A stretch of DNA of 64,000 nt from Chamaesiphon sp. (GTDB lineage Bacteria > Cyanobacteriota > Cyanobacteriia > Cyanobacteriales > Chamaesiphonaceae), in assembly GCA_965246715.1 (NCBI GenBank), contig CBDFFH010000002.1:160001-224000 (forward strand), in the 5' to 3' direction. The translations under genes were made by a program, and so were the position numbers. The stretch's first letter is position 1. Each line of letters starts with the position of its first letter. The notes beneath the pieces were generated by a model. That model worked only from the letters and a program-made list of their open reading frames with translations. It was not told where the DNA came from and did not search any database. This document shows positions 4,401-64,000 of the stretch, in pieces.

Positions 4401-4984
4401 GCCGACACCATAATCGGGAGTCTGGCTCCTTTATTTTTAAAAACCCGCTCTAGTCCATTGATTGCTGCCTTAATTTGCAGCACATCCATACAAGTTTCGA
4501 TTAGGAATAGATCTACACCACCGTCATACAGGCCTGTAGCCTGCTCGGTGTATGCTTGCTCTAGTTCTTCATAACCGATATGGCCGATCGAGGGTAGCTT
4601 AGTACCAGGGCCGATCGATCCAGCAACAAATCTCGGTTTCTCAGGTGTCGAAAATTCTGCCGTGCATTTTTTCGCTAGTTCTGCGGCAGTCTTATTCAGA
4701 TAATAAACCTTATCTTCCAATCCATATTCCGCCAACGTCGTCGCCGTACCGCCAAAGGTATCGGTTTCAATCACATCCGCACCCGCCGCCAAGAAATCGC
4801 GGTGAACTTTGGCAACTGCTTCGGGTTTGGTATGGACGAGATATTCATTACAACCCTCATACTCGGCACCACCAAAATCTTCCGCTGTCAGATTTTGAAC
4901 TTGGAGATTGGTACCCATTGCTCCATCGAAGACGATGACGGGACGTTCGGGACTGTGGAGACGCGCGAGGAAGGTATTAGTCAT
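1436..4984 (-). CDS. metH: cobalamin-dependent methionine synthase
   Basis: DGAMGT, GGCCGT zinc motif, [10 protein letters not shown] pterin domain, [11 protein letters not shown] cobalamin motif, [10 protein letters not shown] activation domain. Confidence 0.97.
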
Positions 4985-46983: not shown

Positions 46984-47334
46984 CTCGCCTAATTTTCCAT
47001 TCACCAGCACAGTAGCGGTAAAATTATCTCACTCGATCGTTAAAAGTAGTGCTGGAGATCGAGCCATGCAAATAACATAACTCAACATCGGGCATGCGAT
47101 CGATCGGCAGCCCCAAATAGTCGTTCCACGGATCTAAGACAAAACCCTCAACCATTCGATCGGATCGAGATTAAAGTCGATCGATATCAGATCGATCTAA
47201 AGCACCATCTACAGTTGCTAAAGTCATTCAATCCAAAATCACAATTAGCTTACTTTTGCTAAAGTGCGAACTGCTAAAATTTCGTCAGAGCGTAAGATTT
47301 AGATCGCAGAAATAGGCACCGCAATCTCTGTCAA

Positions 47335-48822
47335 CAGGGTGAACGCACTTAAATTTCCTACTATTTAAAATCCTCGCAAATCAGTTGCAGATTTGAATTA
47401 CGAAAAGTATGAAAGCTTTAATGGTAAACAAGTATAGCCAGTTAATTATGTTATATTTATTGGAAATTCAGATCGCGTCAAATGAAGCTAAAGCCAAGGC
47501 ATAGTATCGCAGAACACTTTGGTGACATAAAAGACATTAGAATTGAACGGGGGAAAAAACACAAACTAATCGATATTATCACGATCTCGATTTGTGCAGT
47601 AGTATGTGGAGCAGATGGATGGGAAGACATAGAGCTGTATGGCATCACCAGAAAAAAATGGCTGGAGGAATTTCTAGAATTACCGAATGGGATACCATCT
47701 CACGATACATTTGCACGGGTATTTTCACAAATTAATCCTGAAGAATTCAATAAATCTTTCCTGCATTGGATTAAAGGAATAAGTAAAATAACAGCAGGAG
47801 AGATAATCGCATTTGATGGAAAACAATCTCGAAATTCAAGAGACGAAAAAAATGGTAAAGGAGTAATTAATACGGTCAGTGCTTGGGCAGCAAGTAATAG
47901 ATTAGTATTAGGACAAACAAAAGTCGAGAGTAAATCAAATGAAATTACTGCATTGCCTGAGTTGATTAATGCCTTAGATCTAGCTGGATGTATAGTGACA
48001 ATTGATGCAATGGGATGTCAGCGAGAAATAGTCAAGAAAATTGTCAAAAAAGAAGCAGATTATGTAATTGCTGTCAAAAAGAATCAACCAAGTTTATATG
48101 AAAGGGTAGAACAGCTATTCAAACAGGCGATTAAAACTCGTGGTGAAAGTCTGAAAACGCATAGCTTCAGCAGTAGAGAGATGAATAGAGGTAGAGAGGA
48201 AACTCGTAATTACCTAATGATATCAGACATTGCAACATCAATAGATCCATTGCTAAAATGGCAAAATCTGACTAGTATTTGCATGGTAGAATCAGTTCGA
48301 GTTGTCAATGAAAAAACCAGCGTAGAAGCTCGTTATTTCATCAGTAGCTTAGAAGATAATGTTGAAAAACTAGCAGAAGCAATCAGAGGTCATTGGTCGA
48401 TAGAAAATTCACTCCATTGGGTACTTGATGTTATTTTCAAAGAAGACATTAGTCGAATTAGAAAAGATAATGCTCCAGCTAATTTTGCTGTTTTAAGACA
48501 TATAGCAGTTAATATAATGAGTCAGAACAAGAGTCGAAAACTAAGTGTTAGGAAGAAGCGATTTCTTGCGAGCCTTGATGAAGAATATTCGCGCGAACTT
48601 CTAGAGGCTATTTTAGCCTAAATTTAACTAACCCCAGAGTATGAATTTGGCTAAATATCTTTAGCCGCACTTTTGCCGGACTAAATTGAGTTAATTTAAC
48701 CTCGTCTTTGGTTTCGATTTTATTGATATTGTCGTAATTGTAGTTAAGCAATCGAATATCATTAATCGCCTATTTTAGTGGCTCTCGATCGAAATAAATC
48801 CTGTTTTGATGCGTTCACCCTG
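47335..48822 (+). mobile_element. ISAs1-family IS, 1488 bp
   Basis: TIR cagggtgaacgca / tgcgttcaccctg; 10-bp TSD TCTCTGTCAA. Confidence 0.95.
47482..48621 (+). CDS. ISAs1 transposase
   Basis: GIPSHDTF, FDGK, SNEITA, TIDAMGCQ, HWSIENSLHWVLDV. Confidence 0.95.
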   Translation: MKLKPRHSIAEHFGDIKDIRIERGKKHKLIDIITISICAVVCGADGWEDIELYGITRKKWLEEFLELPNGIPSHDTFARVFSQINPEEFNKSFLHWIKGISKITAGEIIAFDGKQSRNSRDEKNGKGVINTVSAWAASNRLVLGQTKVESKSNEITALPELINALDLAGCIVTIDAMGCQREIVKKIVKKEADYVIAVKKNQPSLYERVEQLFKQAIKTRGESLKTHSFSSREMNRGREETRNYLMISDIATSIDPLLKWQNLTSICMVESVRVVNEKTSVEARYFISSLEDNVEKLAEAIRGHWSIENSLHWVLDVIFKEDISRIRKDNAPANFAVLRHIAVNIMSQNKSRKLSVRKKRFLASLDEEYSRELLEAILA

Positions 48823-48859
48823 TCTCTGTCAAAGATTCACCAATCGCATTAAAAATTTC

Positions 48860-49686
48860 GGCGTTGCTGGATTAAGATATGATTTGGCGATCGAGAGGTA
48901 ATCTGTGCCGTCGATCGCCAGAACTAACTGAATTAGGAGTTGGTACTTCACCAAATTTAAGATAATGAATTAACAATCTAATAGAATGCTTTAGCATTTG
49001 TTCGCACTTAGAATAACATAATGTTTTTCTTTTTAATCGAGCTAAGTAATGTCTGAGCCTAGTGTTTTCACCCTCAACTCTTGTCATATAAGTTTTACTC
49101 ACGATTTGGTCACCATCTGGAATAAATATTGGATAGACCCTCCACCCATCCGTCACATAAAAATAACATTTCCATGTACTTACCAAATTCTCCCATAGCG
49201 GTCTAAATGTCTTAGCACTGTGGTCGCCTAATACCCATCCTAAAATACCCATCTGAAAGTGATTTACTGCCGTCCAGAGCCAGATCTTGTTTTTTTTGAG
49301 CCAACAAACGTCTCTAACTCATCCAACTCACCAACTTCTGGTATTTGGTCTGAATTATAGTAATCTGGGAGATTTGCCCCTACTTGCTTCACCCAATCCA
49401 TGACAGTTGTATTATGCACACCCATTACTCTTTCTATTGCTCGAAATCCCATCCCATTAACATACATTGACAAACATTTCTGCTTGATTTGTGGTGAATA
49501 TCCTCTGTGTGCTTCATAACAATCTATAAATTGCCGTCCGCAGTCTTTACAAATATGGTTCTGCTTTCCCTTTATTCGCCCATTTTTATTGATATTGGAC
49601 GATCTACATTCAGGACATTCCATTTAGATATTTGCTCTTGTTACTTCTCTCGATCGCCTTAGATCATATCCTAATCCAGCAACGCC
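48860..49686 (-). mobile_element. IS1-family IS, 827 bp
   Basis: TIR ggcgttgctggattaagatatgat / atcatatcctaatccagcaacgcc; 8-bp TSD AAAATTTC. Confidence 0.95.
48872..49623 (-). CDS. IS1 transposase InsA/InsB joined by a programmed -1 frameshift
   Basis: CPEC..CKDC zinc finger + HTH; A8C slippery run at 49290-49297; TDGW, ENTRLRHYLARL. Confidence 0.92.
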
Positions 49687-49865
49687 AAAATTTCTAGTAT
49701 GCAACCTTCTTCACCGTTATTTGGATGAGGGACAAAATCGACTAACGTTGCAATATCTCCGGCTCTGAGTCCATACTCTGGTAAGTCGCGAGTTAATGAG
49801 ACTTCTTGATATAATTCCATTGTCATATGAAAATTCCCAAATCATCAGAATGGATTGGTATAATC

Positions 49866-50210
49866 TTAATCCTCATCCTCTTCATCAAAATCTGAATCTT
49901 TAAATCCTAACCAGAATAGAATTATTTCTTCTACTTCACCTAATTGATCTGGTGTGAGATTTCCTAATTTACGGATCAGTTTTGCATGAGGAATTGTAAT
50001 GATATTTTGCACATCAAAGGCACCAGGTCGAAGAAATCTTACTGCGATATCGACTTCAAATCTCGAACCTCGCGAACTTGTTGTGTGTGGAATGAGTGTT
50101 GTTAACGCCCGATCTCGATCTAATGCCGGAATACTGACAACTAAACATGGTCTGACTTTTGCCACCGAACCCAAATCGACCAACCAAACGTCACCTCGAC
50201 TAGGATTCAT
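49866..50210 (-). CDS. PemK/MazF-family toxin
   Basis: RGDVWLVDLG..AKVRPCLVVS. Confidence 0.9.
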   Translation of the reverse strand: MNPSRGDVWLVDLGSVAKVRPCLVVSIPALDRDRALTTLIPHTTSSRGSRFEVDIAVRFLRPGAFDVQNIITIPHAKLIRKLGNLTPDQLGEVEEIILFWLGFKDSDFDEEDED

Positions 50211-50394
50211 ACGCAGCTTCGTCTTGGTCTAACTGTAGAAAAATTTCCTCGGCATTTAGAACCAAGTCATCATCGGATAATGGTGGAAAGTCTAAATAAG
50301 CTGTCCGTTTGAAAATCTCTGATGCTAAATCTAGTCGCTCTGAGTCTGTCAGGCGATCGAATGTAGTTAAGAAATCTTGTACAACAGGAGTCAT
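50200..50394 (-). CDS. putative antitoxin
   Basis: Small acidic ORF overlapping the toxin start; AGGAG upstream of ATG 50394. Confidence 0.75.
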   Translation of the reverse strand: MTPVVQDFLTTFDRLTDSERLDLASEIFKRTAYLDFPPLSDDDLVLNAEEIFLQLDQDEAAYES

Positions 50395-50459
50395 CGTTTC
50401 TCTCCTCTTCAATATATTCACAGCATAACACCACTTAATCTTTTTGAGCTAGTAGATTG

Positions 50460-50541
50460 GCTCGATCGAATCCTCCCACCATCAGCATCGATCGATAACC
50501 CAAAGCCCGATCGAACACCATCACGATCGAATCCCCCACCA
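50460..50541. repeat. single copy of the about 80-bp GATCG-rich inter-cassette repeat
   Basis: cgatcgaatcctcccaccatcag...aaagcccgatcgaacaccatcacgatcgaatc matches 51200-51480. Confidence 0.75.
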
Positions 50542-50790
50542 CTAGCTTACTTTTGCTAGAGTGCGAACTGCTAAAATTTCGTCAGAGCGTAAGGTTTCGA
50601 TCGCAGAAATAGGCACCGCAATCTCTGTCAAAGATTCACCGATCGCATTAAAAATTTCTAGTACGCAGCCTTCTTCACCATTATTTGGATGAGGAACAAA
50701 ATCGACTAACGTTACAATATCTCCAGCTCTGAGTCCATGCTCTGGTAAGTCACGAGTTAATGAGACTTCTTGATATAATTCCATTGTCAT
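50542..50790 (-). CDS. DUF4926-like protein (putative antitoxin)
   Basis: LYQEVSLTRDLPEHGLRAGDIVTLVD...LEIFNAIGE. Confidence 0.85.
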   Translation of the reverse strand: MTMELYQEVSLTRDLPEHGLRAGDIVTLVDFVPHPNNGEEGCVLEIFNAIGESLTEIAVPISAIETLRSDEILAVRTLAKVS

Positions 50791-50791
50791 A

Positions 50792-51121
50792 TTAAGTCTT
50801 CTTACTAGGTTTAAGTGTCACGAATTGAAATTTGTCATCGATCTGTCTTTCTAGCCAAACGGTAATAACTGATAGAATTGTACCATTTACACCGATGAGA
50901 TCTGCTTCAACTTGGTAAAAGGTACCATACTCGTTGATTTTCTCTTCAACTGCGTCTGTGGATAGTGCCTGTGTCTGAATGGCTAGTTTTAATGCTTCTG
51001 AGTTTTCCTGTGTGAACCCAGCCTGAGCTAAAAACTTCGATTTATCATTCCGTGGTTTTGGCTCCAGTAGATAGCGGGTGATTTTAGCATCTGCAATAAC
51101 TAAATCTTCGGGAATCCTCAT
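50792..51121 (-). CDS. DUF6883-like protein (putative toxin)
   Basis: AKITRYLL...DKSKFL..AGF...YG..Y...TVW...FVTL; coupled to DUF4926 gene. Confidence 0.8.
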   Translation of the reverse strand: MRIPEDLVIADAKITRYLLEPKPRNDKSKFLAQAGFTQENSEALKLAIQTQALSTDAVEEKINEYGTFYQVEADLIGVNGTILSVITVWLERQIDDKFQFVTLKPSKKT

Positions 51122-51199
51122 GATTAGACCTATTTTACTAACTATCTGACACAAGGATATAGTTTCGATCGATTCTTTAATTTTAACTGATCGAGTGAG

Positions 51200-51480
51200 A
51201 TCGATAGCCAAAAGCCCGATCAAACATCATCACGATCGAATCATCCCACCATCAGAGATCGACAAAACATCAACATCGATCGATACCCCAAAACCCGATC
51301 GAACATCCTCACGATCGATTCCCCACACCATCAGCGATCGACAAAACATCAACATCGATCGACAACCTAAAGCACGATCGAATCCTCTCACCATCATCGA
51401 TTGACAAAACATCAACATCGACACACCACCAGCGATTGACAAAACAGCCATAAAATTATCAACATCGATCGACTAAAGTT
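51200..51480. repeat. decaying tandem array of about 80-bp GATCG-rich units
   Basis: caccatcag.gatcgacaaaacatcaacatcgatcga repeated; two full and two shortened units. Confidence 0.85.
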
Positions 51481-51769
51481 TGATCGACTATCCTAACTTC
51501 ACCACATTTAATTTGATTGGATACTGTAATGGTATAAAATTTCTAATTTCAATAAACATATCTCTCGATTAAGTACTAAGTTCAATTCAAAGTGTCGATT
51601 TATACTCTTGCAATTAACCTTTAAGGATTTTTTTGTGAACCGTGATAATTTGGGAAATATTAATGTAATATTGAAAATGAATATTTAGTAATCTTGATTG
51701 ATTCAGAGTGCTGCAATATCCAGATGAATAAGCTCAAAGTCAATTTACATCAATCCTTCTCAGATAAAA

Positions 51770-52663
51770 ATGAAACAGAATCCTAATTTAATACAAAAAA
51801 TTTTCTCTCGGGTTTCTATTCTCAACAACAAAACATTATTGATTCTTGGCGTACCAGTAGCTTTATTTGGAATAATATCTGGCTGGATAGTTTTCCATGA
51901 ACATATTGAAAAAAATGCCGCAGGTGTCAAAGAGCAAAATAGACTAAAGGAAGAATCGATAGATAAGAACTTTAAAGATGCTTCAAAACAAATAGGGAGT
52001 AAAAATCTAAAAATCAGAGAATCTGGAGTTGAAGCTATGGGAAGAATCGATGCAAGTTTTTCTGACAAAACTCGATGGGATATCATGGAGAAACTAGCAA
52101 GTGTTATTCGAGCTGATTCTCCAGCCACAAAGAGGAATAAAAATAGGATAAAGCCTGCTCCTATTCCAGTGACAGCGAAGAAAGCTCTAGAGATTATTAA
52201 ATTTCATAATTATAATAAACCAATTAAATATGAATTCTTGGACTTAAAGAAAGTTAATTTGTATCATGGCGATTTGCAGGCAGCAAAGTTCTCTAGAGTG
52301 GATCTTCGTGATAGCCAATTATACATGACAGGTCTGAAGGAAGCAGAGTTGAGAGAATCTAATTTGAGTCGAGCTTATTTAAGGGCATCAGATCTAAGCA
52401 ATACTCATTTAAACAATGCAGATCTTACTGAAGCAGATCTTATGGGAGCTGACCTTATAAAAGCAGATCTTAGTGGAGCGAAACTAAATGGAGCTAACTT
52501 AAGAGAAGCTAACTTAAGTGGAGCTATTTTTGATGATAAACAAATAAAAAAAGCCTGTAATTGGAAAATGGCAACAGATGATGAAGGAAGAATACAGAGA
52601 TTAAAGGAAGACAATTCTTCGGAGCCAGAAACAGAACCTGATTGCGAAAAATTTGATTTTTAG
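51770..52663 (+). CDS. membrane-anchored pentapeptide repeat protein
   Basis: N-terminal TM helix; ADLTE/ADLMG/ADLIK/ADLSG/AKLNG repeats; AT-rich. Confidence 0.9.
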   Translation: MKQNPNLIQKIFSRVSILNNKTLLILGVPVALFGIISGWIVFHEHIEKNAAGVKEQNRLKEESIDKNFKDASKQIGSKNLKIRESGVEAMGRIDASFSDKTRWDIMEKLASVIRADSPATKRNKNRIKPAPIPVTAKKALEIIKFHNYNKPIKYEFLDLKKVNLYHGDLQAAKFSRVDLRDSQLYMTGLKEAELRESNLSRAYLRASDLSNTHLNNADLTEADLMGADLIKADLSGAKLNGANLREANLSGAIFDDKQIKKACNWKMATDDEGRIQRLKEDNSSEPETEPDCEKFDF

Positions 52664-52715
52664 AGAGTCGTTAGCTAGAGTTAGTGAGAGTAATGGCTAC
52701 CACGCAGTTGATCGA

Positions 52716-52916
52716 TTATTTCTCAGACAATATTCGTTGAAATTGCTGAAGTTGTTGCTCTTCCTCTTCTTTAGTTTCAGGCAATCTGTACCAAACTGCT
52801 TCTGCATCTGGGGTACGACGGCAGTAGATTTCTCTAAGGGGTTCGACTTCATCTCGATGAGCTAGCGCGTAAGCTTTTAACTCAGCGATTGTCATTGTTT
52901 CAAATTTCAGGTGCAT
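52716..52916 (-). CDS. DUF6887-like protein 2
   Basis: FETMTIAELKAYALAHRDE. Confidence 0.75.
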   Translation of the reverse strand: MHLKFETMTIAELKAYALAHRDEVEPLREIYCRRTPDAEAVWYRLPETKEEEEQQLQQFQRILSEK

Positions 52917-53126
52917 TTAAGTCGCCTTTAATTGTTCTAGTTTTTGTTGAATTAAAATTTCAACTTGCTTAAACTCATCACTTGAATTGGGAAGATCGAA
53001 TGTCTCTGGAGACGCATCCGCAGTGAATCGATCTACAAACGCATGAAATGCAGATAAATCGTCGGGGTGAGAGATAACATAGGCTCTCAACTCACCTTTT
53101 GTCATGGCATTAAAATCAGGGTTCAT
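52917..53126 (-). CDS. DUF6887-like protein 1
   Basis: PDFNAMTKGELRAYVISHPDD. Confidence 0.8.
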   Translation of the reverse strand: MNPDFNAMTKGELRAYVISHPDDLSAFHAFVDRFTADASPETFDLPNSSDEFKQVEILIQQKLEQLKAT

Positions 53127-53299
53127 TGTAAGAATCTCCAGCGACCATTACGGTAGATTTCTATCTGTATATTTTCACCAGCCAACATAAATATGTTGCC
53201 CGTTCGTTCGTCAATGCGAACAATGAAAATAGGAGTAAAGGTATTGGTTAAAAACTGGCACAGGATAACACACCTAATGCCTTGCTCGGCGGTTGGCAA
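53123..53299 (-). CDS. DUF6888-like protein, 58 aa (absent from the ORF track)
   Basis: TTG start; MPTAEQGIRCVILCQFLTNTFTPIFIVRIDERTGNIFMLAGENIQIEIYRNGRWRFLQ; ATGA overlap with next gene. Confidence 0.75.
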   Translation of the reverse strand: MPTAEQGIRCVILCQFLTNTFTPIFIVRIDERTGNIFMLAGENIQIEIYRNGRWRFLQ

Positions 53300-53369
53300 A
53301 ATTTGGATACCTCACAATTACGATTATAGAATACCTCACTAGATAGCGATCGACCCACGCAGACCAGGA

Positions 53370-53422
53370 AGTTAGTCTGCGTAGGCAGACTTTGCACCAC
53401 TAGCAGCGGTTTCAACCGCTGT
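53370..53422. repeat. short double-hairpin dispersed repeat (relatives near 37274 and 42657)
   Basis: agtctgcgtaggcagact + cagcggtttcaaccgctg. Confidence 0.55.
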
Positions 53423-53434
53423 TGTAACAGGTTC

Positions 53435-54418
53435 CTAACTCCCCCCAATTCGCGCCACATCGCGAGAATTCTCCTCAAACGCAGCATTGAGCGCATCATC
53501 ACCACTCAAGCCCGAAGCCAGCGCATTCTGAATCGCCTGCAACACCCGCTTATAGTCACGCGGCATCACCTTCACGAACTTCGGCACCATCTCATCCCAG
53601 TTGGCTAGCACTTCCGATGCTTTCTTACTCTTGGTATATCGGGCGTGCTTATCGATCGAGTCCTTCAACTTCCCAATCTCTTCAGCATCCGTCACCTTCT
53701 CTAACCCCACCATCTGCGTATTGCAGCGCGTCGGGAAATCGCCCTGCTCGTCGAGGATGTAGGCAACACCGCCACTCATCCCCGCTGCGAAATTGCGTCC
53801 GGTTTTACCTAATACGATCGCTTGTCCGCCTGTCATGTATTCACAACCATGATCGCCGATCGATTCTACAATTGCACTCACACCAGAATTACGCACACAG
53901 AACCGTTCGCCAGCCATGCCGTTGATGTAGATTTCGCCGCTGGTGGCTCCGTAGAGGGCGACGTTGCCGACGATGACGTTTTCGGCGGCGATGAAGGTGG
54001 ATTTGGGCGAGGGGTAAAGGATGATTTTACCGCCGCTGAGTCCTTTGCCGATGTAGTCGTTGGCATCGCCTTCGAGTTCGAGAGTGACTCCTTTGGGGAT
54101 GAATGCGCCGAAGCTTTGTCCGGCACTACCTTGGAATTTGAGGTGGACGGTATCGGCGGGGAGTCCGTGCCAGTGGTTTTTGGTGATTTCGTTACCGAGG
54201 ATGGTGCCTACGGCGCGGTTGACGTTGCAGATCGGGAGGGTGGCTTTAGTTGGTTTGCCGTGTTCAATTGAGTCTTTGCACAGGTCTAATAAAGTAGTAA
54301 TGTCGAGGGATTTGTCAAGTCCATGATCTTGGGCGATCTGGTGATAGCGTCCGACTTCTGCGCCTGCTTCTGGCTGGTAGAGCAGATTAGATGCGAGGGC
54401 GGCATTTGGCTCGATCGA
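53435..54418 (-). pseudogene. gltB: gltB 3' fragment, copy 1 (last about 327 codons of glutamate synthase large subunit)
   Basis: Open frame with no native start: [64 protein letters not shown]. Confidence 0.93.
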
Positions 54419-54743
54419 AAGCTTGTCACCCGATCGAAGAGAGAAAAATGATATGATTAGTGCATGTATTAAGTATTGCGTTTATCTCAAGGATATACCT
54501 ACTGCGCTTTTAACTCCAGAGGAGCAAGATTTTATGAAGACGATGGCACAAATCGATGCTTGGTATGAAACTGAAATTAATAAGGCTAAACTTGAGGGTG
54601 AGCTTGAAGGTGAGCAACGTCAAAAACAGTCGATCGCACTTAAAATGATTCAAGAAAATATCCCCTTTGAGGTAATATCTCGGATTACTGGACTTAAAAT
54701 CGATCAATTACAACAACTTCAATCTTCACCAAACAATGGTTGA
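54419..54743 (+). pseudogene. 5'-truncated Rpn-like gene; C-terminal 69-aa ORF 54534-54743 is intact
   Basis: KLEGELEGEQRQKQSIALKMIQENIPFEVISRITGL tail; AGAGGAG upstream of ATG 54534. Confidence 0.7.
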
Positions 54744-54770
54744 TTGACCGTAATCGATCGAGCTTAATAT

Positions 54771-55166
54771 TTACCAAATTGTTTTCACATGAGGGTATTT
54801 TAGAATATTGTTGTCGCAGGTAATTAGTGGGACATCAGATCTTCTTGCCATCGCTACAATAATTCTGTCAGCAGGATCTTTATGGAAATCGCCTGGTAGT
54901 TGGGTACTGGCGATCGCGTCTTCAGGATTCAGTGCTTCGATTACTATTCCTGAGTGACTTTTGGCTAGGGCATACCAATCATCAATCGGTAAGGGTAATG
55001 CTAATTTACCCAGACTAGATTTTACGGCTATCTCCCACACTGAAATAGCTGAAACTAAGATGCCATTTTGGTCTTCTTCAATCTCGATCTGTGCTCGTGC
55101 AGCATTCGATAGTTGACTCGGATCGTGCAAGAGCCATAACCAAATATGGGTATCAATAACAATCAT
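54771..55166 (-). CDS. VapC/PIN toxin
   Basis: IDTHIWLW, VSAISVWEI, HKDPADRIIVA, LITCD. Confidence 0.92.
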   Translation of the reverse strand: MIVIDTHIWLWLLHDPSQLSNAARAQIEIEEDQNGILVSAISVWEIAVKSSLGKLALPLPIDDWYALAKSHSGIVIEALNPEDAIASTQLPGDFHKDPADRIIVAMARRSDVPLITCDNNILKYPHVKTIW

Positions 55167-55396
55167 TCACCCAAAGCCATCCACAGATCGGTCATTGGGG
55201 CATCAAAATCAGGTTCGATCTGAATTGGCGTTCCGCGCAAGGGATAATGTTTTTGGTCGTTTAACTTAGTCTCGTTCTGGGTTGTGGCTGTTACTGGGTA
55301 GTTACTACCGAGGGAGCGGATAAAGTCTAAAAGGCTTAGTTGCATTGGTTCGGGGATTTTCTCTAGTTCCCGGACTATCGATTCTATCGTACTCAT
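55163..55396 (-). CDS. putative antitoxin (DUF2281-like)
   Basis: LEKIPEPMQLSLLDFIRSL...DFDAPM; ATGA overlap with vapC. Confidence 0.8.
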   Translation of the reverse strand: MSTIESIVRELEKIPEPMQLSLLDFIRSLGSNYPVTATTQNETKLNDQKHYPLRGTPIQIEPDFDAPMTDLWMALGE

Positions 55397-56091
55397 GATG
55401 TAATGGGGTAAATTGAATATGATTCAATTTTACCATTCTCACATTTAGGCAACAAGGATCGATCAAATTGTCAGAGACTACCTCCGGTAGGCTACGCCAA
55501 TGAGTCATAGTAACAGCATCGAATCCCCAACTCTCACAATCAAAAACACTAAAATTATCAATATCAAGTTAACTATAAACTTTTGTTTAATGCATGTCGT
55601 AAAATAGTCTCTGTATATTGTGCATGTTCGTTGGTATGTCCTGTTGTTTCAACTGAGACAGCCATTCTAGTATCTTGGCTATCATATAGATGAATATAGA
55701 AAATATGTTGCCCATCTTGCGTTCTGCGATTAGATCTTTGTAAATCATTCACGGGCGCAGCAAAGGCCGCATCATTGTATCTGACAAGATCGATCCATTC
55801 TAAATCTTCTAGCCGATGCCTTAGTGTGTCCCAACTTCTGGGGCGATGATGAGCAAATCCCTCCTGGACATTAACAACTTGATTTCTATCTCTATGAGAG
55901 ACAGGAGGTGCGTTAACCCTCTGTTCTAATTCATTGTTTTCATTGCGTAGATTATCAACGCTTTGCTGTAGGTTATTATTTTCATTGCGTAGATTGTTAA
56001 CGCTTTGCTGTAAATTATTATTTTCATTGCGTAGATTTTCAATTGTTTGATTGTTATCATCATCGATCATTCCGATTATATCCTGTCGCTC

Positions 56092-57506
56092 GGCTCTACC
56101 GAACTTGCTATGCTAAGTAGTGGATAAGAATCAAGTTTAATTGACAAAATTGATAATTTTGAGTTATGGAAGCTTGGTGCAGCATAAATGACAGATTTTA
56201 TTATAGAATAGTAAGATCTTGATTTCTGGCAACAAATAAGCTTGAATTGCATTATGTCATCCAAATCGCAACTAAAAACCATTAATGAAATTCTTAATAT
56301 CGACGGAATGACCGTCACTGCTTATAAGATCTTAGATGAAATCGGTTATTTTATTTATCTAGAAAATCAGCAATTAAAAGCAGTGTGTCCTCATTGTGGA
56401 ACTGAAAGTAATAAACTTCATGAGAATCACCAATTAACAGTGAGAGATCTACCATTCGGTGAACATGATGTTTACCTTAAAATTAATCGTCGTCAATTCA
56501 AGTGTATGAGTTGTGGTCGAAAATTCAGTGAGGAATTAAATTTCATCAAAAAGAGAAGTCATTTCACCGAGCGAATGAAGCAGAAGATTGTCGAAGAGAG
56601 TCTAGCTAGTGATATTAAAAGTGTTGCCAAAAGAAATGGATTAAGTGAGCAAGAAGTGGAGACAATAATCAAAAAAGCTGGGGTAAATCTAGTGCAAAAA
56701 AAGCCAGAGAATTTAACCAGACTAGGAATTGATGAAATTGCCTTTGTTAAAGGGCAAAAAAACTATTGTGCGGTGTTAGTAGATCTAGAAAAAAGAGAGT
56801 TAATAGCCATCTTACCAAAAAGGACTCAAGAATGTATTGGTGAGTGCTTGAAGTCTTGGGGTTCGGAGGTTTTGAACCAAATTACAGAAGTAAGTATCGA
56901 TCTATTTTCATCATACAAAAGTCTGGTAAATGAATTGATACCAAATGCTGAAGTGGTTGGAGACAGATTTCATGTAATGAAACAGATAAATGAAGAGTTA
57001 GATCGAGAGAGAATTAAAATCAAAAGAGAGGCTGAGAGGGTGAAGAACAAAGATGAAAAGAACAAGAAATTAGCAGCATTAACTCACAGTAAATATGCAA
57101 TACTCAAAAACGAAGCGGATTTGAATGAATTGCAAAAAGAGAAGTTGAAAGAGATTGGAGACGTTTTTCCAGAATTAGCAGCAATGCACAAAACAAAAGA
57201 GTTATTTAGAGATATATTTGAATCAAAAACAGATTGGGGAAATGGGCTAATAAGCTTGTGTGACTGGCTCAAGAATGCTTGTGGGAAATTCCCCAAGAGT
57301 TGTGGAACTATTAAAAGATGGATTGGTGAAATAATTGCCTATTTTGATAATAGAACAACTCAAGGAGTCGTCGAAGGAATTAACAATAAACTCAAGCTAA
57401 TAAAAAGAATGGGATATGGGTTTAGAAATTTTGAGAATTTTCAGATCAGAAGTTTGCTAGCATGGCATTTCAATCCTTGATTTAGCATAGTAAGTTCGGT
57501 AGAACC
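56092..57506 (+). mobile_element. ISL3-family IS, 1415 bp
   Basis: TIR ggctctaccgaacttgctatgctaa / ttagcatagtaagttcggtagaacc; 8-bp TSD TGTCGCTC. Confidence 0.95.
56254..57480 (+). CDS. ISL3 transposase
   Basis: CPHCG..CMSC, LGIDE, VSIDL, DRFHV, EGINNKLKLIKRMGYGFRN. Confidence 0.95.
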   Translation: MSSKSQLKTINEILNIDGMTVTAYKILDEIGYFIYLENQQLKAVCPHCGTESNKLHENHQLTVRDLPFGEHDVYLKINRRQFKCMSCGRKFSEELNFIKKRSHFTERMKQKIVEESLASDIKSVAKRNGLSEQEVETIIKKAGVNLVQKKPENLTRLGIDEIAFVKGQKNYCAVLVDLEKRELIAILPKRTQECIGECLKSWGSEVLNQITEVSIDLFSSYKSLVNELIPNAEVVGDRFHVMKQINEELDRERIKIKREAERVKNKDEKNKKLAALTHSKYAILKNEADLNELQKEKLKEIGDVFPELAAMHKTKELFRDIFESKTDWGNGLISLCDWLKNACGKFPKSCGTIKRWIGEIIAYFDNRTTQGVVEGINNKLKLIKRMGYGFRNFENFQIRSLLAWHFNP

Positions 57507-58527
57507 TGTCGCTCTAGATCGAGCTGTTCTCTCTCTTGTTCGAGTTGTTGCGCGTTTTGCTCAGATTCAATCGCTCTTTGTTCAGCATCAATTGCCCTTT
57601 GTTCGGCTTCCAGCTTCTCTGCCTGAGTTCTAGATTCTGATTTTTGAATAGATTCAGCAATTTCTCGATATTCACGAGCACTATCACGAGCTTCAATAGT
57701 AGCTTGATTTGCAGAAAGAACTTGGTCTGTAGCCTGCCGAATTTTTCTCTCACTCTCTAGTTTTACCTCAGTAGCTTGACGAATTTTCTGCTCTGCTTCT
57801 AGCTCTTGGCGATCGGCCCTAACTTTTATATAAGATGCTAATTCTGTTAATAGCCAAACAAGAACACCTGTCAGTATTGCAGAACCAGTAATTGCATTAT
57901 AAACTTTTTGCCACTGTTGTTCCAAGGATTTTGCCACCATGATAGCAGTTCAGATTGAAAGGATGGTGGATTTCCTCTTAATAGATAAACTCTGCCGATA
58001 ACATTTCCGCGATTTTGTTTACCAGTTGAAACTTTTTGAATAGAACGAGGACTATCGAACTTCCATTCTTGTTCGATCGGAGCTGGATCGCGTAATATGA
58101 GAAAATCTCCATTTAGCTTCTGCGCCGGATAATCTGTATCGTTAAATCTTTCAGCCCAGGTTGGCGAATATTGATATTTTTGTATCTCTAATTTCTGTTT
58201 GCCATCCGGTGCTGTTTTTACGATTGCTTTTGAGGCATAGATGATTTTTTGCTGCCGACAGTCTAATTTATCAGACTTGCAATCAGTTACAATAATACCA
58301 AATAGTCCATAGTTGCTATCTAAGGTTTCTTGTAAGCCTTTTGGGTCATTATTCAATAGTTGCGTTGATAGTTTAGTGGGCAGTGTATTAGCTAAAATAT
58401 TAAAATCAACTGTCTGAACTCTTTTGACAGTAACATTCCAATAGTTTTCATTATTGTAATAAATAGTACATACGCTGGTTAGTGTCGAAAACCCTAAAGC
58501 ACCAATCAGTCGGATTGCCGAGCTTTT

Positions 58528-58665
58528 AGCGCATTCCCAATCGCTTGCAACACCCGCTTATAGTCACGCGGCATCACCTTCACAAACTTCGGCACCATCT
58601 CATCCTAATTCGCCAGCACGGACATCGCTTTCTGACTCTTGGTATATTGGGCGTGTTTCTCGATC
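58528..58665 (-). pseudogene. gltB: gltB 3' fragment, copy 2 (about 138 bp)
   Basis: [41 protein letters not shown]; aligns with copies 1 and 3. Confidence 0.9.
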
Positions 58666-58675
58666 TCAAATTGAG

Positions 58676-59014
58676 TTATTCCTCTGTTAGATCGGGTTCC
58701 AAATCCAATGCAAATAAGATCGCTTGTTTAATTTTCAGCATCACATCATCGGGTAGCTGCCCTAATTTTCTTTCCAATCTGACTGTTGGTATCGAAGCGA
58801 TCCCTTGAACATTGGCGATCGAATCTCGATCTAGAAACCGAAGTCTTGGCAAGACAACTTCGTATGAACTATCTCGATACTGAGTTGTCAATGGCACATA
58901 GATTGCCAGTGCCCTTGGGGGATCTAGATCGTGGCGGGAGACAATTACAACTGGACGAGTTTTCGCAGCTATCCCCAGATCCGCTAGCCACACTTCACCA
59001 GGATTAAGGTTCAT
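58676..59014 (-). CDS. PemK/MazF-family toxin
   Basis: PGEVWLADLGIAAKTRPVVIVSR..VPLTT. Confidence 0.9.
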   Translation of the reverse strand: MNLNPGEVWLADLGIAAKTRPVVIVSRHDLDPPRALAIYVPLTTQYRDSSYEVVLPRLRFLDRDSIANVQGIASIPTVRLERKLGQLPDDVMLKIKQAILFALDLEPDLTEE

Positions 59015-59192
59015 CGATTAAATCCAGCACATCTTGTTCGACAGTTCGCGATGGCAGTAAATCGAGAATATCGCGATCTGCCAAATCAATAATTTCTGAG
59101 ATATATTGACGGACTCGATCGGATATTTCTGGCTTCCACTCTTGCAATTTAATTCCTAGTCTTTCAGTCAAGGCATCCATCAGTATCTCCAT
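59004..59192 (-). CDS. putative antitoxin
   Basis: Small acidic ORF overlapping the toxin start. Confidence 0.75.
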   Translation of the reverse strand: MEILMDALTERLGIKLQEWKPEISDRVRQYISEIIDLADRDILDLLPSRTVEQDVLDLIDEP

Positions 59193-59329
59193 TGCAAATG
59201 ATGGGACATTTCTATTTTGCCAAGTTTATGACAGCATAACAAGTAAACAGAGCAATGCTTTTAGACCATTCTACTAGCATTGCCTCACTCGTGCGCCCCT
59301 GGCGGAGCTTTGCTCATCGATCTAACGTC

Positions 59330-60001
59330 TTAACTCCCCCCAATTCGCGCCACATCGCGAGAATTTTCCTCAAACGCAGCATCTAGAGCATCATCGCCAC
59401 TCAACCCCGAAGCCAGCGCATTCTGAATCGCTTGCAACACCCGTTTATAGTCACGCGGCATTACCTTCACAAACTTCGGCACCATTTCATCCCAATTAGC
59501 CAGCACTTCTGTTGCTTTCTGACTCTTGGTATATTGAGCGTGTTGCTCGATCGAACCCTTTAACTTCTCAATCTCCTCAGCATCCGTCAGCGTTTCCAAT
59601 CCCACCATCTGGGTATTGCAGCGTGTCGGGAAATCACCCTGCTCGTCGAGGATGTAGTGGCAACTCCGGCGGCGATCGTGCCGACTCCGACTTCGGATAC
59701 TAGTTTGACGTTGATTCGGGCTTCCCGATTGGCATTTTTGAGATCGTGGATCAGTTCGGCGAGATCTTCGATCGAGTAGATGTCATGGTGCGGTGGGGGT
59801 GAAATCAGCCCTAAGCCTGGGGTGGAGTGACGAACTTTGGCAATCCAGGGATAGACTTTTTTGCCTGGGAGTTGTCCGCCTTCGCCTGGTTTGGCTCCCT
59901 GTGCCATTTTGATCTGGATTTCTTTGGCTTGGGAGAGGTAGAGGCTGGTAACGCCAAATCGTCCTGATGCGACTTGTTTGATGCCGCTATTTTTCGAGTC
60001 G
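59330..60001 (-). pseudogene. gltB: gltB fragment, copy 3: FMN-domain piece fused out of frame to the 3' end
   Basis: [53 protein letters not shown] joined near 59657 to YILDEQGDF...VARIGGS. Confidence 0.93.
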
Positions 60002-60055
60002 ATCGAGATGTTAATATGTCTCTATTCCGACCGTTAGTAGGCTCCACCACCGAGC

Positions 60056-60994
60056 ATGAGTAAAAGCATCGACCATGACCAGTTGTTCAAGCAACTATTA
60101 ACGACTTTCTTTCTGGAGTTTCTAGAATTATTTACACCAGAATTCTTCGCCGCGATCGATCCTCAGAGTCTTGAAATTCTCCCGCTCGAATACTTTACCG
60201 ACATCGAAGCTGGCGAACGCAAGGCGATGGATGTCATTGTCAGAGTTAATCTTCTCGGTCGTCCCAATGCTCCACCTAGCAGTCGAGTGTCGGTAGTCGT
60301 CAATTGCGAACACCAATCCACTACCCAAGCTAATTTTCATCGGCGGATGTTCTTTTACTTCGCGCAACTGCATCGGAAGTACTTACAGCCAGTCTACCCG
60401 ATCGCGTTATTCTCCTTTGATGAGCCATATCGACCGGAACGAGATTCTTATCAGGTTCGAGTGCCTGGTTTGCAGGTGATGGATTTCAATTTCCTGACGA
60501 TCCAACTCAATCGATTGGACTGGAGAGAGTTTGTGGCTCAACCCAATCCAGTCGCAGCGGCGTTAATGGCTAAGATGGAAATCGATCCAGCAGATCGCCC
60601 ACGGGTTAAGGTGGAGTGTTTGCGGATGATTGCGAACCTCAAGTTAGATAAGGCGAGAACTTTTCTGATATCGGGATTCATCGATAATTATCTGCGGCTG
60701 AATCCGATTGAAGAGCAGCAGTTTCAGGTTGAAGTTGATAAAATTAAATTACCTACAGAACGGGAGAACGTGATGGAACTTACTACTAGTTGGATGGAGA
60801 AAGGAATAATACAAGGTCGGGAGTCAGAAGGAAGGGGATTAGTAGTCAAGCTTCTAACTCGGAAACTCGGCAACCTCTCGCCAGAACTTTTATCGCGGGT
60901 AAATGGTTTGAATCTCGATCGAGTGGAAGTCTTGGCAGAAGATTTGTTAGATTTTACCAATGTGGGAGATTTAGAGCGGTGGCTGGCGGTTTGA
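60056..60994 (+). CDS. Rpn/YhgA-like PD-(D/E)XK family protein with DUF4351-like tail
   Basis: DHDQLFKQLL, D...EHQS, RMFFYF, NPVAAALM, LAEDLLDF..DLERWL. Confidence 0.88.
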   Translation: MSKSIDHDQLFKQLLTTFFLEFLELFTPEFFAAIDPQSLEILPLEYFTDIEAGERKAMDVIVRVNLLGRPNAPPSSRVSVVVNCEHQSTTQANFHRRMFFYFAQLHRKYLQPVYPIALFSFDEPYRPERDSYQVRVPGLQVMDFNFLTIQLNRLDWREFVAQPNPVAAALMAKMEIDPADRPRVKVECLRMIANLKLDKARTFLISGFIDNYLRLNPIEEQQFQVEVDKIKLPTERENVMELTTSWMEKGIIQGRESEGRGLVVKLLTRKLGNLSPELLSRVNGLNLDRVEVLAEDLLDFTNVGDLERWLAV

Positions 60995-61271: not shown

Positions 61272-63011
61272 ATGAGTGCATGTCAAACAGTTAATGTATG
61301 GACAACAGAAAAAGTTCTAGTTCCAATTGTCTCCTTCATAACGCGAGCGCGAGAAGTATGCCAAGAGTTAAGACAACAAATTGAGGAACAGGTCAGTCAG
61401 CCTGTTGAGAATTGGATTTCTCAACAAGAAAGAAGATGTCGTGATCTTCCTTGGTGGAATCCTGTAAGATGGTTTTGCGAAATTGTTAGTGTTGTAGTTA
61501 AGGTAGTTACTTGGGTTGTAATTACGGTTGTTAAGTGGGTTATCACGATAGTTTGTCAAATTGTTACCGAAGTTATCGGTGCAATTGTGACTTTTGTTCT
61601 TCGAGTTATAGCTTGGTTAGTTTCTTTCGCCGTCTGCCTTTTTACCGATCCGCTTGATGCTCTTAAATCATTTCGGGATCTTTGGGGAATTATCCTCGAT
61701 CTAGTAGATGATATTTTTGATATTGTTAAAGTTCTGATAAATGATATCGCTGGTATTTTGGATGATATAGACAATCTACTTGGTTCTTTAGCTGACTCAC
61801 TAGGAATTGTAGGCGCAGTAATCTTTGGTATATTCCGTGGAGCGGTTCAAATTGCGAGAGATGTCGTGAATATTGTTCGCGATTTTATCGAAGGAATACA
61901 AAATTTAGTAGGAGGTATCTTAGGTCTAAATCTTTGTCGTATTTTATCAGGACTATCTGATATTGGAATCGGAGCTGTTATGGCTATCATTCGTACTGGT
62001 GGAGGATTTATACCTCTTATTATTGTACGTGCGGCTGGAAACATCGTTGCAGGCGTTCGTGATTCAGCTAATCTTAACCGGATTGAAGATATAATTACGG
62101 ATGCTCTCAATAATGCTTTTCCTGAAGATCCAGAGCGAAAGGAACGTGCAATCAAGCGAATTGGTTTGGGAAATCGTCCAATGGGACTCCCTTTTACCTC
62201 CCAGCCCCGACGATATTTTCTCTCTTCTCGATCGAGTGACATCGATTTACGAGTGCTTCACAAAGAAGAAATCATAAATTTATATGAGCTTGCAGGTTAT
62301 TTTTCTGGGTGCAAAGATGCTCTAAACCGTCCTCGCGGAGAGGTCGTTTATGCAGGAACAGATTTGAAAGTTTCGTATGCTGATTTAAGCCGCTTCTTAG
62401 ATGAAGGAGTAGAGGCAGCACCAGCCTTTAATGTTTATCCAATTACCAAAGCAGTATTTACGAGATATCTATATATAGCTCGTCGTAAGTCACAGCAACT
62501 TGGGATCAAGCTATATTGGAATTCTATTGATGAATTACCCATCGAAAAACCTGACCAAGTTCAATTTATGATTGCTAACGGAGGTTCTGGTGTCCAATCA
62601 TTACTTGAGCAGCAACTTGCTCGTTTTGGTCGCACAGGCAACAACGATGACTTATCTCAAATTCCTAATTTGGCTGTATTTAACTTCAGCCCAAATAATT
62701 TCAATGGAATTACTTCATGGTTTAGACCACCATTAACTGATGCTAAGACTGGGATTGCTTTCAAAGATCGTTTTCCTGAATTTGCCTTTCGTTGGGTGCT
62801 TATTCACGAACTAGGTCATTACTGGGGGTTGAATCATCACGGTGGACTTGAATCCATTATGTTTACTCCAAACGATAGTCCCACCCCTGTTACGCCAGAA
62901 ACAGTTTTGGAGTATCTATTACTGTCAGGTGAACCCAATTTTAATCTTCAGGATGCGAGAGATACATGGTCATGGATTACGAAAACTGCTAGTAAATCTT
63001 TACTTCCTTAA
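61272..63011 (+). CDS. membrane-associated protein with C-terminal metzincin-like zinc protease motif
   Basis: Cys/Trp/Val-rich N-terminus, long amphipathic helical region, HELGHYWGLNH followed by SIM Met-turn. Confidence 0.8.
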   Translation: MSACQTVNVWTTEKVLVPIVSFITRAREVCQELRQQIEEQVSQPVENWISQQERRCRDLPWWNPVRWFCEIVSVVVKVVTWVVITVVKWVITIVCQIVTEVIGAIVTFVLRVIAWLVSFAVCLFTDPLDALKSFRDLWGIILDLVDDIFDIVKVLINDIAGILDDIDNLLGSLADSLGIVGAVIFGIFRGAVQIARDVVNIVRDFIEGIQNLVGGILGLNLCRILSGLSDIGIGAVMAIIRTGGGFIPLIIVRAAGNIVAGVRDSANLNRIEDIITDALNNAFPEDPERKERAIKRIGLGNRPMGLPFTSQPRRYFLSSRSSDIDLRVLHKEEIINLYELAGYFSGCKDALNRPRGEVVYAGTDLKVSYADLSRFLDEGVEAAPAFNVYPITKAVFTRYLYIARRKSQQLGIKLYWNSIDELPIEKPDQVQFMIANGGSGVQSLLEQQLARFGRTGNNDDLSQIPNLAVFNFSPNNFNGITSWFRPPLTDAKTGIAFKDRFPEFAFRWVLIHELGHYWGLNHHGGLESIMFTPNDSPTPVTPETVLEYLLLSGEPNFNLQDARDTWSWITKTASKSLLP

Positions 63012-63025
63012 ATGGAGAGACTGAA

Positions 63026-63406
63026 ATGATATATACGATTAGTGATACTTTGTCAGTGAGCGAATTAAAGTTAGCAGCTACAAGACGGATGGTGACTCGA
63101 ATTGAAATAAAAATCCCTGATACTGACGAATCAATTCAAAAACAATTAGCCTATAAACTCACTCGTTCCATTCGTGCTTGTGGATGCGAAATAGGAGCAA
63201 TTTTTTTTACTGCAACGTTGATTTTATTTACAGTCTTAGCCTTCGGAGCAGACAGACCTGTGTTAGAGGTAATTCGTAACAATGCTGTAATAGAAGTATT
63301 CGCATTACTATGTAGCACTATAGCGGGTAAGGCTATAGGTTTAGCCTATGCACAAATTGAGCTTTGGCAAACTCTGAATAAAGTTCAAGTTTTACTACAG
63401 AAATGA
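63026..63406 (+). CDS. small two-TM protein with CGC motif
   Basis: ACGCEIGAIF followed by two hydrophobic helices; GGAG upstream. Confidence 0.75.
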   Translation: MIYTISDTLSVSELKLAATRRMVTRIEIKIPDTDESIQKQLAYKLTRSIRACGCEIGAIFFTATLILFTVLAFGADRPVLEVIRNNAVIEVFALLCSTIAGKAIGLAYAQIELWQTLNKVQVLLQK

Positions 63407-63469
63407 TGATCTAACCGAAATGATTCATTATTTTCCTCGATTGACTGCCCAGTAATCAGGTTAAGTATC

Positions 63470-64000
63470 ATGCAACTTTTTCCAGCTTTGATTCGCGATT
63501 TATTTGTGAATTCTTGGTCAGCATTATACCAAGTGTTTACCATTTTTGTTGATTATGTGCGCCGACTCTGCATAGAGAAGCGCGTGCCAGAAAGGATTCG
63601 ACGACTCTCAACAGATCCGTGTGTTGCAATCCAAAGACCAGAATTCAAGCGACCAGATCCACTCATCTATTCACAGTCATATTTGATGGAACAGGGGTTG
63701 GCTGTCACTTGGGATAATCCTGACATTGAGCTTCGCCGTAATGGTGTAGTAGTTCCTTCTGAAAAATTGGAACTCGATACTGAGTATGAAATTGTTGCAA
63801 CTGTATGGAATAATTCTACCGATGCTCCCGTAATACAGTTGCCAGTCTCATTTTCCTTTTTGAGTTTTGGTGCTGGCACACTAGAGCAAACCATTGGTAT
63901 TAATAAGGTCGATCTAGGGGTAAAAGGTGGCTTAAATCACCCAGCATTCGCCACTATATTTTGGCGGACACCAAATATTCCTGGACACTATTGTATTCAA
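63470..64000 (+). CDS. hypothetical protein with probable beta-sandwich domain (runs off the window end)
   Basis: Open from ATG 63470: ...RPDPLIYSQSYLMEQGLAVTWDNPDI...VWNNSTDAP...WRTPNIPGHYCIQ. Confidence 0.8.
   Translation, partial: MQLFPALIRDLFVNSWSALYQVFTIFVDYVRRLCIEKRVPERIRRLSTDPCVAIQRPEFKRPDPLIYSQSYLMEQGLAVTWDNPDIELRRNGVVVPSEKLELDTEYEIVATVWNNSTDAPVIQLPVSFSFLSFGAGTLEQTIGINKVDLGVKGGLNHPAFATIFWRTPNIPGHYCIQ

Follow-up and report, generated by a model that had tools for sequence, protein, structure and literature searches.

The stretch analysed here, which we call the window, comprises 64,000 nucleotides from the genome of a freshwater Chamaesiphon, assembled in 55 contigs (G000; contig C2, positions 160001–224000). 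Its right part harbors an array of toxin–antitoxin (TA) and other cassettes interspersed with 5′-truncated copies of the end of the glutamate synthase gene gltB. We compared this array with 26 other genomes of the genus (G001–G026; 27 genomes including G000), of which G001 and G026 are complete and G026 is the sister genome; locus stretches taken from these genomes carry L-numbers (e.g., L011, L020). Positions without a contig label refer to the window, and gltB nucleotides are numbered by their position in the intact gene of G000 (4644 nt).

Truncated gltB ends and cassettes in G000

The intact gltB gene (1547 aa) is located on the minus strand at C2:229245–233888, 5 kb past the right edge of the window, where the original prediction, made from the window alone, had expected it. 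The gltD gene, which had been expected beside it, is instead found at C2:147366–148841, 80 kb from gltB and not adjacent. The closest PDB entry of the intact gene product is the NADPH-type enzyme 7mfm (1922 bits, versus 1361 bits for the ferredoxin-type enzyme 1llw); judged by this similarity, the gene that anchors the array is of the NAD(P)H type. The same matches rule out the ferredoxin-type gene glsF as the anchor, and the ferredoxin-type glutamate synthase gene of G000 lies on contig C15 (1llw, 2279 bits).

Downstream of the intact gene there are four partial gltB copies, all on the minus strand. Three of them are inside the window, as had been noticed before, and a fourth, tail A, lies just to the right of it (C2:227531–227745, gltB nt 4430–4644). 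Tail 3 (59331–60001) consists of nt 2835–3178, 94% identical to the intact gene, followed by an internal microhomology deletion of 1130 nt and by nt 4308–4643 at 89%. Tail 2 (58528–58658, nt 4429–4559, 91.6%) carries an in-frame stop and lacks the final 85 nt of gltB. Tail 1 (53435–54391, nt 3688–4644, 91.5%) has a stop-free frame, and behind it a palindromic REP-like repeat with dozens of genomic copies is found (53372–53421). The BLAST E-values of the copies in the window range from 1e-49 to 0 and are thus far past chance.

Compared with the intact gltB of G000, the tails show dS values of 0.26–0.43 and dN/dS values of 0.03 (tail A), 0.06 (tail 3), 0.16 (tail 2), and 0.085 (tail 1); dS between the tails themselves amounts to 0.29–0.51. 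For long gltB copies found in other genomes, the values are dS 0.18–0.46 and dN/dS 0–0.11. As the divergence of the tails resembles that of orthologues of other species and their dN/dS is low, the tails appear to be the displaced ends of once-functional genes, as the original prediction had held. Local duplication with subsequent decay is disfavoured, because such decay would yield dN/dS near 1. The three peptide variants quoted earlier as signs of distinct alleles are also present. Thus, on the evidence of these substitution patterns, we could show that the gltB tails are foreign alleles which evolved under purifying selection.

Starting at the intact gltB, the cargo begins with a PIN pair and a MazF pair on the minus strand (C2:227758–229193), which lie between tail A and the intact gene. 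Beyond tail A follow an ISAs1 copy (C2:225890–227383, right of the window), an inverted block of unknown genes with a weak metallopeptidase motif (61272–64000 and on to C2:225911, plus strand), and an Rpn-like gene (60056–60994, plus strand; Pfam DUF4351, TIGR01784 under the cut-off), which is divergent to tail 3 and 55 bp off it. A candidate antitoxin without a family and a MazF toxin recognized by Pfam (58676–59192, minus strand) separate tails 3 and 2. Tail 2 is followed by a broken gene (55573–58356, minus strand), by a DUF2281/VapB-like antitoxin with a PIN (VapC) toxin (54771–55396, minus strand), which is the cassette with the widest sharing in the genus, and by an Rpn-like C-terminal fragment (54423–54743, plus strand; TIGR01784 E 2e-7, below the cut-off). 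The latter is divergent, adjoins tail 1 and is 72% identical to its counterpart in G005. The broken gene had been described as a membrane gene; one apparent membrane segment was indeed found, together with a coiled coil and a C-terminus matching the PADLOC CARF7 model, but in G000 it is only a remnant of a 556-aa open reading frame, frameshifted and split by an ISL3 element (56092–57506), whereas the frame is whole in G019.

Behind tail 1 there are DUF6888 and two DUF6887 genes assigned by Pfam (52716–53299, minus strand), an inverted pentapeptide-repeat gene (51770–52663, plus strand; 99.9% in G026), DUF6883 and DUF4926 genes with a candidate antitoxin and MazF (49866–51223, minus strand), and a second DUF4926 copy (47240–49831, minus strand), which is broken by IS1 (48850–49696) and ISAs1 (47331–48824). 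This copy is the left end of the array, beyond which a core NADH dehydrogenase-like gene, radC, and hen1 follow. Short dispersed repeats of 25–79 nt, rich in CGATCG, surround the DUF6883 and MazF cassettes (50460–51446). Pfam confirmed the families proposed for the window cargo (PemK/MazF twice, PIN, also called VapC, DUF2281, DUF6888, DUF6887 twice, DUF6883, and DUF4926 twice). Most cargo is co-oriented with the tails as had been claimed, but the two Rpn-like genes, the pentapeptide gene, and the unknown block face the opposite direction, and transposases of the ISAs1, IS1, and ISL3 types lie within the array.

Inside and beyond the window, the whole array thus holds three MazF pairs, two PIN pairs, two Rpn-like genes, and four IS elements. 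Its segments of at least 150 nt outside the IS elements have no copy at 80% identity or more elsewhere in G000. Since a second TA-rich stretch with HigB, PIN, and other small pairs and IS elements lies upstream of gltB (C2:234000–246000), the gene is situated within a TA island of about 40 kb.

Arrays at gltB, acnB, and metH in the genus

A match to the gltB end is present in 21 of the 27 genomes, in some through a paralogue only. The gltB loci were examined in 18 genomes, and a copy was counted as a tail when foreign sequence precedes it. Such tails occur in 11 genomes (G000, G003, G005, G011, G012, G013, G019, G021, G022, G023, and G026); in G016, G017, and G018 two gltB ends lie at contig edges and are assignable neither to tail nor to no tail; and no tail was seen in the stretches examined of G001, G002, G006, and G015, none of which forms a same-species pair with a tailed locus. 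In a search of 401 genomes of the phylum, 60 outside the genus have one strong match each to the gltB end, and among the matches listed none has a second; 112 weaker matches and a third match in three genomes lie outside this listing.

Variable cargo and repeated tails behind gltB had been expected in relatives, and both were found. Nearly every cassette of G000 recurs near gltB pieces of other species with 72–93% identity and in different order, unlike the inverted block, for which no recurrence near the relatives' gltB pieces was seen. Other cargo of the relatives includes Wadjet, GmrSD, AIPR, DndB with HNH, RES-Xre, a deaminase with Imm1, and methylases; in G013 a complete Wadjet system, jetABCD, stands between two gltB tails (L011:3691–10195). 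The core genes beyond the array vary from species to species.

In addition to the cassettes, the joints between cargo and tail are shared. The junction of PIN with a tail starting at nt 4421 is common to G000 (tail A), G003, and G022, and the junction of the Rpn-like gene with a tail starting at nt 2835 occurs in G000 (tail 3), G011, and twice in G013. The junction of MazF with a tail is common to G000 (tail 2) and G021, and a RES-type flank joins a tail in G005, G013, and G019. The cargo after the tail differs among the genomes that have a junction in common. These data show that cargo–tail junctions are inherited as units. Furthermore, cargo that stands behind a tail in one genome stands directly behind a long gltB end in another: in G013 the long gltB end is directly followed by the cargo that comes after the tail in G003 (95.6% over 2 kb), the DUF6888 and DUF6887 cargo of tail 1 is the first cargo after the long gltB ends of G006, G017, G022, and G023, and the cargo of tail 3 is the first cargo after the long end in G015. 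Cargo and junctions are shared among species with only about 80% core-gene identity.

The inverse arrangement was observed as well. In G022 (L020:59–368) a 5′ head of gltB is the mirror image of the tails; the pair after it, which we take to be AbrB/Doc-like, is present in G000 too, again upstream of gltB. Further 5′ heads stand upstream of genes in G000 at C13:7649–7890 (polA), C9:115407–115502, and C5:365042–365111, and several heads end at a CGATCG-type site.

Arrays of this kind are not special to gltB. When 4634 open reading frames of G000 were searched against the genome, 3′ copies were found 30 times downstream on the same strand, nine times upstream, and three times inverted (counts that include IS and paralogue matches), and acnB and metH stand out. 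Tails of each of these two genes occur in 6 of 15 genomes examined. The acnB array of G000 (C51:1–18997, L029) has at least three tails and carries a methylase and SacI-family nuclease cassette, a TcmP/radical SAM pair, and PIN TA pairs; the junction of the methylase–nuclease cassette at acnB nt 1291 recurs in G013, G016, G021, and G022, with other cargo downstream of it. The pN/pS of acnB tails is 0.03–0.15 in nine of ten cases and 0.37 in one. The metH gene lies inside the window itself (1436–4984, minus strand) and thus adds a second such anchor; its tail of 1371 nt, 99.6% identical to G000 metH, lies just left of the window (C2:155626–156996). G000 and G005 share an 8-kb block of metH and cargo at 92% identity. 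Three metH tails are found in the complete genome G026 and one in the complete genome G001.

The original prediction had called the anchor a housekeeping gene. This description fits gltB poorly, as gltB looks dispensable: the complete sister genome G026 retains gltD and holds gltB as fragments only. The genes acnB and metH are more clearly housekeeping anchors.

Each anchor has its own cargo. Within the locus sets we counted 115 (gltB), 145 (acnB), and 90 (metH) cross-genome matches, some flanking core genes being included, and between the sets none for metH and gltB, none for metH and acnB, and one, within the same genome, for acnB and gltB. These sequence matches indicate a cargo pool which is private to each anchor gene. 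Two control genes had no tails, carB in 26 of 27 genomes (76–82% identity, compared apart from the sister genome) and secA in 22 of 27 (81–87%, a second secA copy in G016 being set aside).

Short 3′ pieces of the ferredoxin-type glutamate synthase gene (86–93%) occur at G011:C579, G013:C146, G015:C24, G021:C180, and G023:C207, and this gene is a possible, weaker fourth anchor. Short single 3′ tails of 55–156 nt (89–95%) are also present in G000 at C15:369326, C55:186467, C2:271993, C38:66682, and C27:136171, behind genes which we take, from the likeness of their translations, to be a sulfite/nitrite reductase gene, argC, a radical SAM gene, a comF-like gene, and an oxidoreductase gene.

Proposed entry of the cassettes behind conserved genes

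The alleles of the tails and the shared, variable cargo support the earlier proposal that units of gltB tail and cargo were captured serially from related donors. We suggest that the array is probably a stack of cassettes which entered one after the other behind gltB when DNA of other species of the genus recombined there by homology. A rare illegitimate join would first set the 3′ piece of a gene behind cargo; at gltB the abundant CGATCG palindrome would often be the site of this join. The resulting segment of gene end, cargo, and tail would then have two arms that match the gene of any relative, and linear DNA taken up by natural transformation could insert the cargo by two RecA crossovers, restoring an intact gene and shifting the resident end and the older cargo downstream. 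Subsequently, tails would shorten through microhomology deletions and IS insertions. As the flanking repeats also permit loss by looping out, TA and restriction–modification cargo would be kept selectively. Long, conserved, stand-alone genes (gltB 4.6 kb, metH 3.5 kb, and acnB 2.6 kb) should be the best anchors, since both arms can be accommodated in them. We consider it rather likely that a gltB end and a tail flanking a cassette do lead it into a relative's gltB by two homologous crossovers. The tail behind a cassette is best read as a displaced resident end or a second homology arm and not as a passenger.

Transformation is already known to make duplications (PMC3784515). Several observations fit this scheme of insertion. 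In G000 comEC and dprA are intact, and HHH_3 (ComEA-type) matches are present too. The 3′ parts of the anchor genes are 85–95% identical throughout the genus. Whereas core genes flanking the relatives' loci mostly differ from G000 by pS 0.44–0.69 (three flanking genes, probably mobile, by 0.20–0.38), the last 750 nt of gltB differ by 0.23–0.33, and in the gltB of G002 and G022 pS drops from 0.47–0.60 at the 5′ end to 0.24–0.33 at the 3′ end. The core genes of G026 differ from those of G000 by pS 0.09–0.19 (94–97% identity), and the 2927 nt of tail 1 cargo are 99.7% identical between both genomes. Tail 1 and the tail of G026 have 45 mismatches in the upstream 428 nt, three in nt 4468–4486, and one in the last 158 nt, from which we infer a crossover inside tail 1 near nt 4487. 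A second crossover of this type lies in the metH tail of G005: compared with the end of G004, its first 495 nt contain 30 mismatches and its last 279 nt none, while the 1 kb after the tail has four. Pairs of genomes sharing their first cargo have more similar acnB and metH ends than other pairs (p 0.03 and 0.015, the pairs not being independent).

Other observations weigh against the scheme, and we set them out together. The insertion itself is reconstructed, no event having been observed, and the competence of G000 is judged from its genes only. The crossovers within tails would fit a simple replacement via the tail as well as an insertion, and an IS element splits the G026 tail at nt 4463–4468, near the presumed crossover. 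The cargo of G003 and G013 is 98–99% alike starting at the stop codon, but differences between their gltB ends reach to within 10 nt of the stop, for which a crossover inside the tail is no explanation. The identity of gltB ends hardly depends on whether pairs share their first cargo (92.3 vs 91.8%, 6 vs 410 pairs, p 0.26). Short gltB pieces with cargo stand amid unrelated core genes in G019, G021, and G026, so that part of the movement takes place without the intact gene as anchor. In the complete genome G001, neither gltB nor acnB has a tail in the stretches examined, and the assemblies of the relatives are mostly fragmented, with contamination of up to 8%. One ectopic piece of G026 (L022, L027) is a gltB fragment with a cargo gene in a 1.75-kb insert that is absent from G000 and lies upstream of genes which we take to be cydA-like.

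The junctions bear on how the tails arose. We distinguished 14 junction classes at gltB, 6 at acnB, and 7 at metH, most of them beside RNases or unknown genes. There is no single fixed junction, and no common sequence at the tail starts of the three arrays. Tail lengths range from 46 to 1800 nt, and the repeats are 86–96% identical except for metH of G000. The tails hold many internal deletions, most of them with overlaps of 3–18 nt. A fixed recombination site common to gltB nt 2835 and acnB nt 1291 was considered, and no likeness was seen by eye. The diversity directly after the gltB stop (31 ends in 21 classes) was not counted as evidence, as small intergenic repeats that come and go may account for part of it.

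One alternative, which we consider improbable, is that the arrays are driven by nuclease homing, as a bacterial counterpart of the yeast WHO elements discussed below: a nuclease encoded beside a long tail would cut the gene of the recipient, and the donor would serve as template for repair. Candidates, no more probable than homing itself, are the Rpn-like gene at gltB nt 2835 and the SacI-family nuclease at acnB nt 1291, since the two most widely shared long-tail junctions adjoin these DNA-nuclease-related genes; repeated tail starts are a hallmark of WHO arrays (PMC7282813). However, such genes do not adjoin most of the many junction classes, and the metH junction common to G000 and G005 comes after an NB-ARC gene and no nuclease. 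The recurrent long-tail starts moreover have a common upstream flank and are therefore one inherited junction rather than the product of repeated cutting. A sharp identity step at the shared starts, nt 2835 and nt 1291, was not seen in pS. Scans of the TA, restriction–modification, Wadjet, GmrSD, AIPR, and Rpn-like cargo proteins with Pfam, NCBIfam, and PADLOC gave no LAGLIDADG or intein match.

Somewhat less probable still is recombination directed by CGATCG (the highly iterated palindrome, HIP) as the main engine, with HIP-to-HIP excision, circles of tail and cargo, and integration by a single crossover. The most frequent 8-mer of G000 is TCGATCGA with 4633 copies (757 per Mb), and for Chamaesiphon minutus 750 per Mb are given in a study that also reports HIP-linked site-specific recombination (PMC4390886). 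Of the 14 junction classes at gltB, 8 have CGATC or GATCG within 12 nt (p 4e-4 against a background of 0.156), or 7 of 13 if two classes with an evident shared origin are counted as one, and four independent flanks reach one and the same TCGATCGA site near gltB nt 4421. Nevertheless, the motif is found at none of the six acnB and two of the seven metH classes, the internal deletions rely on other microhomologies, and joins at HIP may be secondary trimming of longer tails. Thus HIP helps at gltB and is no requirement; as a general requirement it was rejected on the acnB and metH counts. HIP1 is reported to raise transformation efficiency (10.1101/2024.09.10.611283).

Very unlikely is an integrative element that targets anchor genes, carries their replacement 3′ end, and relies on an integrase encoded by itself or acting in trans. 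Integron-integrase N-terminal fragments lie in the acnB arrays of G000 (C51:439–801) and G009, an integrase fragment lies near the gltB remnant of G026, integron integrases above the cut-off occur in 7 of 27 genomes, and G000 has 23 tyrosine-recombinase matches. On the other side, no full integrase is present in the array stretches examined, the tail starts have no sequence in common, and the tails vary widely in length. The window contains no tyrosine recombinase, as had been noted before, and the sole one on C2 is at 323523, 89 kb beyond gltB. There is no integron integrase on C2, the two best matches of G000 being sub-threshold fragments on C51 and C27, and none matches at any gltB locus of the 27 genomes, the match of G026 being 1.9 Mb away. 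A simple core-pair scan, not a covariance model, gave 12 attC-like matches, palindromic pairs counted on both strands, over a background of 4.2 ± 3.3; all of them lie within or next to IS elements, Rpn genes, or genes of the inverted block, and none, including any between cassettes, folds below −0.15 kcal/nt. The arrays scanned contain no tRNA. The idea that the gltB stop region is an attI-like site was dropped, there being no IntI or attC.

Contigs of public runs, possibly from the source sample, match exactly across the stop of tail 1 and across the end of tail 2. None covers the whole G000 array, read support being partial, and among the matches listed none individually bridges the left junctions of tails 1–3; some join array modules in other orders (for example, 59193 to 52927 and 61003 to 54772), at 90% likeness a hint only. 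Local tandem duplication with decay, or an assembly artefact, is the least credible explanation of all, for although G000 is in 55 contigs with multi-copy IS elements in the array and its metH tail is nearly identical to the gene, the gltB tails have dN/dS values of 0.03–0.16 with species-level dS, are 8–13% apart, which makes confusion of the assembler unlikely, share junctions with other genomes, are partly bridged by the exact contigs, and have counterparts of the same kind in complete genomes.

Returning to insertion by homologous recombination, the layout likely records an integrase-free entry route behind conserved genes. In our judgement it is an even question whether the tail-armed cassettes make up passive, self-targeting bacterial mobile elements, in which one core gene would give both arms and which would add up, cross species borders without recombinase or nuclease, and draw on a genus-wide pool for each anchor. 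The locus offers a testable route by which TA and defence genes may reach chromosomes in the absence of mobile elements, a process that still calls for an explanation. Any genome can be screened for its signature, namely a long gene followed by diverged 3′ fragments of low dN/dS. If the route holds, species have exchanged the 3′ halves of some core genes, which would mislead phylogenies, and that defence hotspots of this type may be lost from metagenome bins. Additive insertion by two arms of one gene could also help gene stacking in cyanobacteria.

Comparison with known systems

A search of the open-access literature, subscription papers being outside it, found no description of arrays of core-gene tails in bacteria. 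The closest likeness in layout comes from yeasts of the genera Torulaspora and Lachancea and their WHO elements (PMC7282813; bioRxiv 10.64898/2026.08.13.744650), which form clusters behind the metabolic gene FBA1 interspersed with 3′ fragments of this gene. Each entry swaps the 3′ end and shifts the old end downstream, the fragment being a homology arm. However, every WHO unit encodes an allele-specific homing endonuclease and spreads in meiosis via one cut site, whereas the Chamaesiphon arrays have neither a single homing endonuclease family in their units nor a single cut site, but diverse TA and defence cargo, many junctions, three anchors, and exchange across about 80% core identity.

Restriction–modification genes inserted with long target duplications, mostly in naturally competent species and with Microcystis among the genera (PMC2853133), are likewise addictive genes between long direct repeats (>30 bp) with no other mobile element. 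They are reported as single inserts with near-identical repeats of about 30–420 bp, in contrast to the serial arrays described here, whose repeats reach 1.8 kb and consist of diverged alleles of a 3′-terminal coding part. Orphan modules of Rhs/CDI systems and the T6SS immunity arrays of Vibrio are also built by displacement (PMC5361080): homology-anchored entry with an illegitimate far end has been proposed, old modules move downstream, and finished arrays later travel by homologous recombination. In those systems it is the anchor gene's variable toxin tip that is displaced, whereas the ends of GltB, AcnB, and MetH keep their function unchanged and what is new is the cargo behind them.

The array had also been called integron-like. 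This holds for the layout, an ordered array of small TA and defence cassettes with the newest presumably at the entry point, as in chromosomal integrons; it does not hold for the machinery, as the arrays have neither IntI nor attC-like hairpins and long homologous repeats instead. Finally, TA islets between core genes are TA clusters without mobility genes which spread by homologous recombination (PMC13617665). In these islets both flanking core genes are used and the interval is replaced, whereas in Chamaesiphon a single gene supplies both arms, and it is for this reason that cassettes accumulate and that the downstream core neighbour varies by species.

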